A stretch of DNA of 64,000 bases from Escherichia coli. GTDB lineage: Bacteria > Pseudomonadota > Gammaproteobacteria > Enterobacterales > Enterobacteriaceae. The stretch lies in NCBI RefSeq assembly GCF_009931435.1, contig NZ_CP043414.1, one strand, 5' to 3'. The number at the start of each line of letters is the position of its first letter. Position 1 is the stretch's first letter. Made by a program: the position numbers. Positions 1 through 3,000 of this stretch are shown here, one piece after another.

Positions 1-3000
1 GCCGTGTTGAATCAACACTTTGCGCTCGACAGACCCTTGCAGGATAAAGATCGCCTTAATCGTGATGTTAAAGTGCGAATTGCCGAAAAAGCGGCCAGTT
101 TTGTCAAAGATGGCGATACATTAATTATCGATTCTGGTTCAACGACCACGCTAATTCCCGCTTCGCTCAAAGGGCGTCGGGATTTAGTCGTCATGACGAA
201 TGCCTTGAATATCGCCTGGGAAATGGCCAGTTTTGAACGGGTGGATGTTATGATCCTTGGTGGAAATGTTCGCCAGAGCGTCTACTCCCTGTATGGGCCT
301 TCGGCAGAACAACAACTCCGGCAGTATCGCTTTGATAAGCTGTTTTTGGGCGTGGACGGCTTTTGCCTTGAAGCAGGGATTACCACACCACATCCGGGTG
401 AGGCACATCTGAACCAGGTGATGTGCCAGGTTGCGCAGGAAATTACTGTTGTCGCGGACTCCAGTAAATTTGGCCGCAAAAGCTTCTGTATGATCGGTGA
501 AGTGAGCGAGATAGATCGACTGATTACCGATAGCGGTATTCCGGAGAATTACAAAGCAGCATTAACGCAAATGGGTGTGGAAGTTGTGATTGCTGATGAG
601 TGAGAAAATGTGGCTGGAGATAAACGTCGCCAGCCACATTACGTTATTCAGGTTGCAAGTTCGATTTGCAGCAACGCCGCGCCTCGTACACCGCTCGTTG
701 CTCCGTGAATCGCAGAAAATACGCGCGCAGGTTCCAGTCCAGGAAGAAGATAACGCGTCATAGCTTTCGGCAATAACGTGTAAATTTCTTTGAAGTTAGA
801 CACACCGCCGCCAAGAACAAATGCATCTACGTCGAGAATATGCTGCAACTGTGCCAGCGTACAACCAACCATATCTATCCAGGCGCTAATGGTGGTGATG
901 GCACTGGGAACGCCACGTTGATGATTTTCTAACAATGTCTCCATAGTGATTTGCTCACCGCTGAAATGCTTATGTAACCAGAGCAAGCCAGGACCGGACT
1001 GGTAGCGTTCCAGGCACCCTTGCAAACCGCAGCCGCATTGTAATTCAGGCAGGTTATAGCGCCGCGTAAATGTCGCCGGGAGCGGTAAATGGCCAAACTC
1101 GCAGGCCATACGGTTACGGCCACGGTACAACTGGCCATCAATAACTAATCCCCCGCCCATACCCGTGCCGATAATCGCGCCAAAGATCCGACTATATTGA
1201 CGAGCTTGATCGGTATGCGCTTCTGATAGGGCGAAGCAGCAGCAGTCATTATCCATTATTACCGGGCGGTTAAGGCGATTTGCCAGATCGGTTAACACCT
1301 GGCGTCCGGTCAGGCAGGGAACGTTAGAAGACAACAGTTTACCGGTGTGCCGATCCATAACGCCGGGCATCCCGATACCTATTTTGCCTTGCGTACCCGT
1401 GGCCCAGTCAGCGGTATCAATCAGAGACACAAATGTGGATAGAAAAAGCGCGTAATCCTGAACAGGCGTAGCTACCCGCTTGCGCCAGCAAATTTGTAAA
1501 TCCTGATCAAAGGCGACTATCTCTGTTTTGGTTCCACCAATATCAACACCGTAAAACATCGCTCATCTCCTTTGGTTTCACAGCACAACCAGGGTATTTT
1601 CCTTGCGAGCGCGTTCGGCGGCAAAGACCATTAAATGACTTTCGAGCGATTCATCTGGTCCTGAAAGGATCATCGCTCGATCGTCAGCCATCACGGCATG
1701 GATAAAGCTGTCCATCAGATAGTAATCACCACCACCGTGCCCTCCCATTTGGGTGTGAGTGCCTGCGTTTTTCTCTTCAACGGTGTAAATAGTTTCCTGG
1801 TCGGTGAGAAAATCAAAACACCGAATGGTGTTGCCATCGCCTTCCAGATAACCTTTCGAACCGAAAACTCGGGTTTTGCGATCCTCCATTTTCGTAAAGG
1901 CTGTCATTGTAAAAGTGACGCTCTGCTGATGCGCAAACTGCATGTTTACCACTTGATGATCAACAACATCGTTATCGCAGCAATAAACACAGCGACCATA
2001 GGGGCCGTCACGCAGGGCCTGACGAATATTCTCTTCAGTAGGATTTGGTGTTAACACGTGGCGAAAGTGAAACGTACATTTATGGGCTTCGCCAGCATAA
2101 ATTTTGCATGCGGACCACGGGCAGGTCGCTTCTGCCTGGCAATCGAGACAGCGTTCGGCTGCGCCTTCAGGTTGGTTTTGTTTTACAAAATGGTTGAGCC
2201 CGCCAAATGAGCTAACGGTTTTACAGTTGTCTCCCATGATGTAGCGGATCCAGTCCAGATCGTGGCAGGACTTTTGTAACAACATAAATGATGATTCAGC
2301 CTCGTTGCGCCAGTTACCACGCACAAAAGAGTGTGCCTGGTGCCAGTAACCGACGGGTTCGAGATGCTGCATACTGATAATGTCGCCAATGATGCCGCTG
2401 TCGAGTAAGGATTTGAGTTTTTGTGTATATCGGGTGTAACGAAGAACGTGTGCGACGGCTAATAAGACATTATTGCGTTTGACGGCATCAATGATAATGC
2501 GGCAATCGTGCTCTGTTGGCGCGAGCGGTTTTTCCAACAGAATGTGATAACCGAGATCGGCAAAAGCGACGGCCGGATCTCTATGCATATTGTCTTGCGT
2601 ACAAATAAGTACAGCATCAGCCATTTTTGGCCGAGCAGCAGCCTCTTTCCAGTTGCTAAAAATATTATCTGTCGGGATCGTATGCCGGGACACAACTTGC
2701 TCGCGGTAAGCCTCTCTAGGTTCAGCAACACCTACCACTTGCATTCTGTCCGGATGCTCAAGGGCATAGCGGGAATATATTTCTCCACGTGCGCCTGCAC
2801 CTATTACTAAAACAGTGACTTTATTTTTACTCATATAAAGAAATACCTTTCTGATAAATTCATCTTAATTGCTACGTTATAAATTACGAAAACTAACAAG
2901 ATGAAATCCGTGTTTTTCAATCGCATATTTGAGTGACGGTGTAGTCAGAACCGTAAGTTCTTCCAGCCGTTGATAGCAGTAACTGCTCGACATTAAGTGG

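Follow-up and report, generated by a model that had tools for sequence, protein, structure and literature searches.

Gene and protein at the locus

The stretch of Escherichia coli DNA analysed here (the window: 64,000 nucleotides of contig NZ_CP043414.1, assembly GCF_009931435.1) carries, on its minus strand, a six-gene sugar operon whose fifth gene encodes an oxidoreductase of the Gfo/Idh/MocA superfamily. The gene is a single open reading frame (ORF), reading from an ATG at 2834 to a stop codon at 1578–1580 and coding for 418 residues. These are exactly the limits given by an initial annotation made from the sequence alone, to which the strand is now added. An identical E. coli protein is already on record, labelled merely 'Gfo/Idh/MocA family protein'. 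By the sequence comparisons presented below, it belongs to a subfamily (hereafter Cys4-Gfo) that spans the domains of life, has no characterised member and bears a novel insertion with four cysteines.

The protein has no signal peptide, and its Rossmann strand begins at residue 6. Pfam domain PF01408 (GFO_IDH_MocA) covers residues 7–129 (E 6e-19), a region with the dinucleotide-binding motif GAGARG at residues 12–17 and the EKP motif at residues 101–103, in line with the standard N-terminal half described initially. Residue E38, which closes strand beta-2 and is an Asp in the scallop orthologue, suggests a preference for nicotinamide adenine dinucleotide (NAD) and not NADP, following general knowledge of Rossmann folds. 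Within the EKP motif, K102 corresponds to the catalytic and NAD-binding lysine of the Gfo/Idh/MocA family (PMC7535918). The C-terminal domain was matched by PF02894 (E 3e-13) and PF22725 (E 5e-12), and this match spans residues 141–414 for a Pfam model of 218 positions, indicating a large insertion of about 80 residues that breaks the C-terminal half. At the structural level, the fold was assigned by Foldseek with a probability of 1.0 to many superfamily members.

Four invariant cysteines define the insertion

The initial annotation had singled out a CxxC...C...CxxCC cluster in the C-terminal half, atypical for the family. All these cysteines are present, with CLDCQAEATCPWSAC at residues 229–243 and CVYCCD at residues 282–287 (both checked codon by codon), but the pattern as written is not conserved. 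Among 120 close homologues (57–83% identical), conservation extends to C229, C232, C238, C282 and C286 but not to C243, C253, C285 or C339. A set of 1.84 billion cluster representatives was also scanned in full, giving 890 clusters at E ≤ 1e-30, and 122 full-length representatives of 50%-identity clusters (36–55% identical) were compared. Here C229, C232, C238 and C282 are kept in 120–122 of the 122 proteins (C282 in every one), whereas C286 is kept in 78, being replaced elsewhere by Ser, Ala or Gly, and C243, C253 and C285 are lineage-specific. Four of the eight cysteines are thus invariant and, by this measure of conservation, which lies far past chance, the cysteine feature is real and consists of a four-cysteine set and not of an eight-cysteine pattern. 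The positions are invariant and the spacing varies, C-x2-3-C-x3-6-C being followed by the last cysteine after about 43 residues. A proline (P239) directly follows the third cysteine, C238, in 75 of the 122 representatives, and conserved aromatics (Y240, Y246, Y279 and Y284) surround the site.

The segment bearing these cysteines was examined in predicted structures. In the full AlphaFold2 model (predicted local distance difference test, pLDDT, 90; predicted template modelling score, pTM, 0.90), the insertion has a pLDDT of 79–91, and the segment 203–302, excised and modelled separately, averages 91. DSSP analysis of the full model identified residues 228 and 281 as the sole isolated beta-bridge pair, directly preceding C229 and C282, and the excised-segment model repeats this pair at its own residues 26 and 79 (equivalent to 228 and 281). 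Two independent models therefore place C229 beside C282 and, with C232 and C238 no more than nine residues away from C229, indirectly make it likely that the four cysteines share one site, in agreement with the clustering initially suspected. Every PDB relative aligns to residues 1–215 alone, and the insertion itself found no counterpart in the PDB, either with its profile (E ≤ 1) or with the excised-insertion model in Foldseek, which supports the view that this half is atypical for the family.

The metal or Fe-S site also suggested initially withstands the refutation proposed for it (dispersed cysteines, or a pattern not kept in homologues), as a putative site built on four invariant cysteines with C229 modelled beside C282; a catalytic or electron-transferring role is less well served. 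With four thiolate ligands, the site would be fully coordinated and probably structural, holding Zn or [4Fe-4S]; Lewis-acid clusters of the aconitase type use three thiolates. Neither a flavin domain nor a ferredoxin-like partner was detected in the protein (by Pfam) or as a recurring element of the scanned operons, which makes electron transfer from NADH implausible. Full coordination, together with this lack of a partner able to split the electrons of NADH, favours a structural site. We favour a role in organising the loops that lead into the invariant strand G-R-C282-V-Y-x-x-D-N288-D-V-x-D292-x-Q294. As for the metal, two features lean towards Fe-S, namely the frequent proline after the third cysteine and the surrounding aromatics, and two towards Zn, namely the variable spacing and the abundance of the family among aerobes and animals.

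An active site without the canonical aspartate

The catalytic triad of the family consists of a Lys, an Asp and a His (PMC7535918). Alignment to YjhC shows that the usual Asp-x3-His/Tyr pair is incomplete in Cys4-Gfo: His191 is present, and the Asp position is occupied by Q or A. Instead, an invariant lysine, K188, stands three residues before H191, giving a KxxH motif in place of DxxxH, and K188, H191, D192 and D194 are all invariant along the same helix. The invariant residues also include H165, H168, R172, N288, D292, Q294, R319, H366, D370, H400, E407 and R410. The motif H366-G-G-G-D370 is a candidate substrate-binding or second metal-binding element.

When the family profile was compared with the PDB, YjhC and RgNanOx were the best matches (E 5e-22), the next ones following about five orders of magnitude behind (3e-17), and the top Foldseek matches include NanOx/YjhC and the NAD-dependent sulfoquinovosidases. 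The initial annotation had proposed a redox-assisted glycosidase, with chemistry like that of glycoside hydrolase (GH) family GH109, or a sugar 3-dehydrogenase. Such chemistry is made plausible by the NanOx/YjhC-like variation at the active site and by the gene neighbourhoods, but membership of the known families is not found. No GH109 chain occurs among the 60 listed of 66 PDB matches at E ≤ 0.01, nor among the 39 PDB matches obtained at E ≤ 1e-8 with the family profile, no direct pairwise comparison having been run. The GH188 structure SqgA (8qc3) scores E 2.2e-4 over residues 11–215 only. GH4 enzymes are marked by Glyco_hydro_4 domains and a Mn2+-binding Cys/His pair, and neither the Glyco_hydro_4 Pfam domain nor a GH4 NCBIfam model matches the protein, the true GH4 enzyme being encoded by another gene of the operon. 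With the BT_2158/BT_2159 glycoside 3-dehydrogenase models the protein reaches 33 bits, the cutoffs being 750 and 650. No NCBIfam equivalog, curated family model or PDB entry covers the family. By these comparisons, Cys4-Gfo is a Gfo/Idh/MocA member with a non-canonical catalytic pair, placed outside NanOx/YjhC, GH109, GH4, GH188 and the curated 3-dehydrogenases.

A family extending from bacteria to animals

The family comprises 890 clusters (50% identity) at E ≤ 1e-30, and its close sequences number more than 8000. Scanning one genome per species, at least 594 loci were recovered from enterobacteria, Vibrio, many actinobacteria, Chloroflexi, phyla of the Planctomycetes–Verrucomicrobia–Chlamydiae (PVC) group, Gemmatimonadetes, Deinococcus and Thorarchaeota (Asgard archaea), with identities of 48–63% outside enterobacteria. 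Structural matches in AFDB50 (TM-score ~0.9) extend this distribution to fish (zgc:154075), turtle, annelid, crustaceans including a copepod and molluscs including a sea slug, as well as to amoebae, an arbuscular fungus (Rhizophagus) and an oomycete (Aphanomyces), these eukaryotic orthologues being 42–52% identical. Chromosomal genes of the scallop Pecten maximus (XP_033750096.1) and the crab Eriocheir sinensis (XP_050732994.1) confirm the animal orthologues. Checked directly, both proteins (~50% identical to that of E. coli, an unusually high conservation) keep the four cysteines and all active-site residues, so that the cysteine set is invariant from E. coli to scallop and crab. No mammal appears among the listed family matches.

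Genomes of the PVC phyla (Kiritimatiellae, Lentisphaeria and Verrucomicrobia; loci L040, L049, L072 and L076) often hold two family copies within a few kilobases, suggesting diversified specificity. Domain fusions were also considered as Rosetta stones; those with GT4, AraC-type helix-turn-helix (HTH), RRM and Sec1-like domains look like gene-model artefacts or are uninformative.

Operon and genomic island in E. coli

The minus-strand operon reads EIIB, EIIC, GH4, ChbG, Gfo and ROK, with intergenic gaps of 69, 77, 12, 42 and 18 nt (Table 1). The GH4 enzyme had initially been placed next to the oxidoreductase; it is indeed encoded nearby, but a chbG paralogue stands between the two genes.

Table 1. 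Genes, motifs and other features of the locus, by position in the window
Feature	Position	Strand	Basis
Second AgaR-type DeoR repressor gene, 3' part (start outside the window), convergent with the operon	1..603	+	NF040755, 269 bits (cutoff 260)
ROK-family sugar kinase, 303 aa, no HTH, last operon gene	648..1559	-	Family models, annotation
Gfo/Idh/MocA-fold oxidoreductase, Cys4 subfamily, 418 aa	1578..2834	-	ORF; Pfam PF01408, PF02894, PF22725
H366-G-G-G-D370 motif, near-invariant, unusual for the superfamily at this position	1725..1739	-	Conservation
C-terminal-domain insertion of ~80 residues (213-292), largely made of short helices	1959..2198	-	Pfam, AlphaFold models
C282-V-Y-C285-C286; C282 is the fourth invariant cysteine	1977..1991	-	Sequence, conservation
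C229-L-D-C232-Q-A-E-A-T-C238, first three invariant cysteines	2121..2150	-	Sequence, conservation
Active-site helix K188-S-C-H191-D192-L-D194	2253..2273	-	YjhC alignment, conservation, comparison with NanOx HxxH
EKP motif E101 K102 P103, invariant	2526..2534	-	Family alignment
GAGARG dinucleotide-binding motif, residues 12-17	2784..2801	-	Sequence
ChbG-type chitooligosaccharide deacetylase, chbG paralogue	2877..3635	-	NCBIfam NF002559, 351 bits (cutoff 227)
GH4 6-phospho-beta-glucosidase, chbF/celF paralogue	3648..5000	-	Family models, annotation
Phosphotransferase system (PTS) EIIC, chitobiose type, chbC paralogue	5078..6439	-	NF007634, 800 bits (cutoff 760)
PTS EIIB, first operon gene	6509..6826	-	RefSeq annotation of a 99.6% identical locus
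Sigma-70-like promoter candidate TTGACA-17-GATTAT, upstream of EIIB	6975..7003	-	Consensus match only

Control of the operon presumably lies with the AgaR paralogue next to it. A search upstream of the operon for arrays of AgaR operators (CTTTC repeats) gave one copy in the promoter region and nothing convincing. The ROK kinase resembles NagK while scoring under the NagK cutoff (306 bits versus 380), and its specificity may differ from N-acetylglucosamine (GlcNAc). It carries a cysteine motif of its own, LQCGCGLQGCLE, resembling the zinc site typical of ROK proteins. In the ORF list, the EIIB frame extends to a GTG at 7042 (177 aa), beyond the 105 aa given by RefSeq; this additional 5' segment overlaps with the promoter-like site, and its translation is improbable.

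These genes form an island, agaR2-ROK-Gfo-chbG-GH4-chbC-IIB (window 1..7260), lying between agaR and garD and present in 3 of 5426 complete E. coli genomes. A G+C-rich hairpin, GAAAACGGGGAGACTGTGTTTCCCCGTTTTCC (minus strand, 7215..7245), lies immediately downstream of garD and looks like the garD terminator marking the island boundary. The chbC, GH4 and chbG genes of the island have their paralogues in the housekeeping chb operon (~69% nucleotide identity). The island holds no EIIA and no ChbR gene, so uptake would have to borrow ChbA from that operon or another EIIA. At the same chromosomal site, Citrobacter werkmanii and an Enterobacteriaceae isolate carry Gfo orthologues (84% and 78% identical), the ROK gene and the AgaR paralogue, but there a CUT1-type ATP-binding cassette (ABC) transporter stands instead of the PTS, GH4 and ChbG genes. 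The locus can thus be read as a constant module of Gfo, kinase and regulator with an exchangeable uptake front-end, and in its Citrobacter version (ABC, Gfo and ROK) the Gfo protein is the sole candidate bond-cleaving enzyme.

Gene neighbourhoods across genomes

Genes were called in 86 loci by codon-usage scoring and clustered, the counts below being numbers of loci with a given neighbour type. The most recurrent partners are CUT1 ABC transporters made of a substrate-binding protein (SBP_bac_1), two permeases and MalK (~26 loci), and ROK proteins (21 loci), which are kinases in gamma-proteobacteria and Ktedonobacter and divergent HTH-ROK regulators in actinobacteria. They are followed by DeoR/AgaR regulators and Zn-dependent alcohol dehydrogenases (9 loci each), GH29 fucosidases (8–9 loci), AgaS (6 loci) and KbaZ (5 loci).

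Sugar kinases adjoin Gfo in distant lineages. A NagK-like ROK kinase is found in E. coli, Citrobacter, Serratia, Photobacterium and Ktedonobacter. The Vibrio kinase is an N-acetylhexosamine 1-kinase (NahK) homologue (E 7.5e-68 to PDB 4ocu), followed by a GalT-like DUF4922 protein. In three other loci Gfo is flanked by related APH kinases, accompanied in two cases by a nucleotidyltransferase. In Cloacimonadota and Delongbacteria, Gfo stands beside a uridylyltransferase resembling the N-terminal part of GlmU (E 4e-72) and a GHMP kinase, and in a planctomycete its partners are an RmlA-like transferase and a GalK-like kinase. NagA adjoins Gfo in one Lentisphaerae locus, and genes of the AgaS, KbaZ, KbaY and AgaR types do so in gamma-proteobacteria. 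In some operons, consisting of an ABC transporter and Gfo alone, Gfo is the only enzyme.

Two loci deserve separate mention. Citrobacter youngae holds a second enterobacterial paralogue (L010, 5572–11254; 58% identical), placed after a MelB-like GPH symporter and an 896-aa protein with no NCBIfam match, whose N-terminus (PLGGIGTG) we take to be GH116-like. A metagenomic operon (L091, 105–8587) encodes a substrate-binding protein, two permeases, Cys4-Gfo, a xylose-isomerase-like TIM barrel, a classical Gfo of 343 aa and a GDE_C/GH94-like hydrolase, and resembles the gene sets of 3-keto-glycoside (oxidative) cleavage.

Proposed function and competing explanations

We tentatively propose, by analogy with related enzymes and from the sequence features above, that Cys4-Gfo carries out a redox-assisted, NAD-dependent C–O bond cleavage that frees an N-acetylhexosamine. 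In this scheme, a cytoplasmic NAD-binding enzyme would have its ~80-residue insertion held by C229, C232, C238 and C282 as a tetra-thiolate Zn(Cys)4 or [4Fe-4S] site, most likely shaping the loops on the substrate side and taking no part in the chemistry. The bound NAD+ would briefly oxidise a sugar hydroxyl with the help of K102 and H191, K188 replacing the usual Asp, and the resulting ketone would acidify the neighbouring C–H, allowing elimination of the adjacent C–O bond, glycosidic or similar. Water would then be added and the ketone reduced back, as in NanOx/YjhC, GH4, GH109 and GH188. The product would be a free N-acetylhexosamine, probably N-acetylgalactosamine (GalNAc) in enterobacteria, which the ROK kinase would phosphorylate for the neighbouring aga pathway. 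Of all this, the fold, the motifs, the conservation of the cysteines, the organisation of the operon and its recurring neighbours are shown by the data, and the binding and nature of a metal, the redox-neutral chemistry, the substrate and the product are inferred.

This proposal draws on two lines of reasoning. First, the partner kinases belong to three unrelated folds making 6- or 1-phosphates, which implies that Gfo acts before phosphorylation and that the substrate of the kinases is a free N-acetylhexosamine; in gamma-proteobacteria, the aga genes point to GalNAc. Second, the loss of the canonical Asp, together with the position of Gfo as the sole candidate cleaver in many transporter operons, makes redox-assisted C–O cleavage the leading model. 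Three other candidates were set aside. A 1,6-anhydro-N-acetylmuramic acid hydrolase feeding AmgK/MurU would fit neither the aga context, nor the NahK-like kinases, nor the Asgard and animal members. Reduction of N-acetylglucosaminic acid oxidised by lytic polysaccharide monooxygenases would be thermodynamically unfavourable, and the operons hold no lactonase or deaminase genes. Finally, a phosphorylated or nucleotide-sugar substrate conflicts with partner kinases that themselves make 6-phosphates or 1-phosphates, the shared substrate being expected to be unphosphorylated.

Several observations weigh against redox-assisted cleavage. The likeness to NanOx, SqgA and the other solved structures is confined to residues 1–215 at ~15% identity and does not fix the chemistry, and the co-location of the cysteines rests on the DSSP bridges of predicted models. 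A literature search returned no characterised member of the family, and no experiment on any member. A GH4 glycosidase is already encoded in the E. coli operon, and other loci have their own glycosidases (the GH116-like protein in Citrobacter youngae, GH123 in Serratia, GH29 elsewhere), so that Gfo need not be the bond cleaver. The TIM barrel and second Gfo of the metagenomic operon fit a plain glycoside dehydrogenase better, the animal orthologues are easier to explain by a monosaccharide substrate, and the PVC and archaeal neighbourhoods, like those outside proteobacteria and actinobacteria more broadly, are heterogeneous.

A serious though doubtful competitor is an ordinary sugar or glycoside dehydrogenase (or reductase) that uses a nicotinamide cofactor with net redox turnover, its Cys4 site being purely structural and cleavage being left to other enzymes. 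It could be a glycoside 3-dehydrogenase starting an oxidative cleavage route, or a reductase finishing one. NanOx apart, every named relative in NCBIfam and the PDB is a dehydrogenase (UDP-GlcNAc 3-dehydrogenase, inositol 2-dehydrogenase, levoglucosan dehydrogenase). AP_endonuc_2 proteins are encoded beside 3 of the 143 proteins scanned, the metagenomic gene set resembles 3-keto-glycoside pathways, and the glycosidases of the E. coli, Serratia and C. youngae loci would supply the cleavage. In most operons, however, the eliminase, hydratase and second reductase required by such a route are absent, the Asp of the triad is missing, and the curated glycoside 3-dehydrogenase models score far below their cutoffs.

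A redox-neutral enzyme that epimerises or isomerises a free amino sugar, and would interconvert an N-acetylhexosamine epimer and GalNAc or GlcNAc through a keto intermediate and so make the kinase substrate, appears improbable. It would accommodate the partnership with N-acetylhexosamine kinases of three different folds, the minimal transporter–Gfo operons, and the cytosolic animal orthologues, for which monosaccharides are the expected substrates. Yet the ABC transporters linked to Gfo belong to the CUT1 type (SBP_bac_1/MalK), and most of their solved relatives bind oligosaccharides. GlcNAc 2-epimerase family proteins already adjoin Gfo in two loci, where a second epimerase would be redundant. 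To our knowledge, moreover, no abundant N-acetylhexosamine epimer could justify so wide a distribution.

More improbable still is a redox-active Fe-S cluster relaying electrons between NAD(H) and a partner or oxygen, or sensing oxygen, or else a set of disulfides: C-x2-C-x5-C-P with a distant Cys does resemble segments of [4Fe-4S] motifs, such as the C-x6-C-x2-C-x5-C motif of endonuclease III or SPASM domains, and P239 and the aromatics noted above would suit a cluster, but NADH gives no single electrons to a cluster without a flavin, the protein and its operons offer neither a flavin nor a ferredoxin-like partner, the spacing varies (x2-3, x3-6), the family is common in strict aerobes and animal genomes, and disulfides are unlikely in a cytoplasmic protein.

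Implications

Taken to its full extent, redox-assisted cleavage would make Cys4-Gfo a new class of NAD+-dependent, metal-cluster-bearing enzymes cleaving C–O bonds (glycosidic or similar), a family of the CAZy type freeing GalNAc or GlcNAc for salvage kinases, a generalisation that we consider rather unlikely at present. If true, this conserved class would reach from bacteria and Asgard archaea to fish, crustaceans and molluscs, revealing a missing step of amino-sugar recycling that was lost in mammals. Given the recurrent N-acetylhexosamine kinase and GalNAc catabolism neighbours, the reaction would probably add a step of amino-sugar salvage in many phyla, animals included, and knowing it would also explain a rare metabolic island of E. 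coli. The four-cysteine insertion would, so far as the present searches go, be the first metal-binding module described in the Gfo/Idh/MocA superfamily. Should the site turn out to hold structural zinc in an ordinary dehydrogenase, the result would be modest and still useful for annotation.

Comparison with known systems

The closest known enzymes are NanOx and YjhC (NanY; PDB 6z3b, 6z3c and 6o15), which share with Cys4-Gfo the Gfo/Idh/MocA fold, the EKP lysine, the catalytic His and the loss of the canonical Asp. NanOx opens the 2,7-anhydro ring of sialic acid through oxidation, elimination, hydration and re-reduction, with regeneration of NAD+, and has a His in place of the triad Asp, giving HxxH (PMC7535918). 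Like Cys4-Gfo, these enzymes are cytoplasmic, encoded beside a sugar transporter, and feed an amino-sugar derivative to a kinase/aldolase pathway (PMC7535918). The two differ in the motif itself, HxxH (HHIH) in NanOx/YjhC versus KxxH (KSCH) in Cys4-Gfo, and in the alignment, which ends at residue 215; NanOx has neither the Cys4 insertion nor the HGGGD motif, and, unlike NanOx/YjhC, the Gfo neighbourhoods contain no sialic-acid genes.

A second comparison concerns the glycosidases GH109, GH188 and GH4, in which bound NAD+ transiently oxidises the substrate so that a glycosidic bond is cleaved. Of these, GH109 and GH188 have the Rossmann/Gfo-like fold in common with Cys4-Gfo (TM-score ~0.72 and ~16% identity in Foldseek between the SqgA structures of GH188 and the Gfo model), and GH109 frees GalNAc, the sugar hinted at by the aga context. 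None of the three has the Cys4 insertion, and GH109 enzymes are secreted or periplasmic, unlike Cys4-Gfo, which lacks a signal peptide. The sugar 3-dehydrogenases (levoglucosan dehydrogenase, DgpA, BT_2158/BT_2159, YcjS and UDP-GlcNAc 3-dehydrogenase) have the superfamily and the N-terminal domain in common with Cys4-Gfo, with weak NCBIfam matches (33–84 bits against curated cutoffs of 450–750). They differ from it in that Cys4-Gfo lacks the canonical Asp and most of its operons lack eliminase and hydratase genes.

For the putative cysteine site, the nearest parallels are structural Zn(Cys)4 sites of sugar and alcohol enzymes, among them the ROK zinc motif and the lobe-loop zinc of medium-chain alcohol dehydrogenases, where four Cys ligands lie on a surface insertion. 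The enzymes bearing them are likewise nicotinamide-dependent, with the site far from the hydride chemistry and variable loop lengths, while their fold and motif differ from those of Cys4-Gfo.

Gene order offers a last parallel. The Vibrio series of CUT1 ABC transporter, Gfo, NahK and GalT-like DUF4922 protein mirrors the transporter, GH112 phosphorylase, NahK and GalT of the lnpABCD pathway for galacto-N-biose and lacto-N-biose (GNB/LNB), and the actinobacterial series of ROK regulator, ABC transporter and Gfo mirrors csnR, csnEFG and the GH4 enzyme CsnH in the Streptomyces csnR-K cluster for chitosan oligosaccharides. An equation of Cys4-Gfo with CsnH itself was rejected, CsnH being a GH4 enzyme. 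In both systems, Gfo holds the place of the bond-cleaving enzyme yet is unrelated to it, the correspondence being an analogy of gene order and not a homology.

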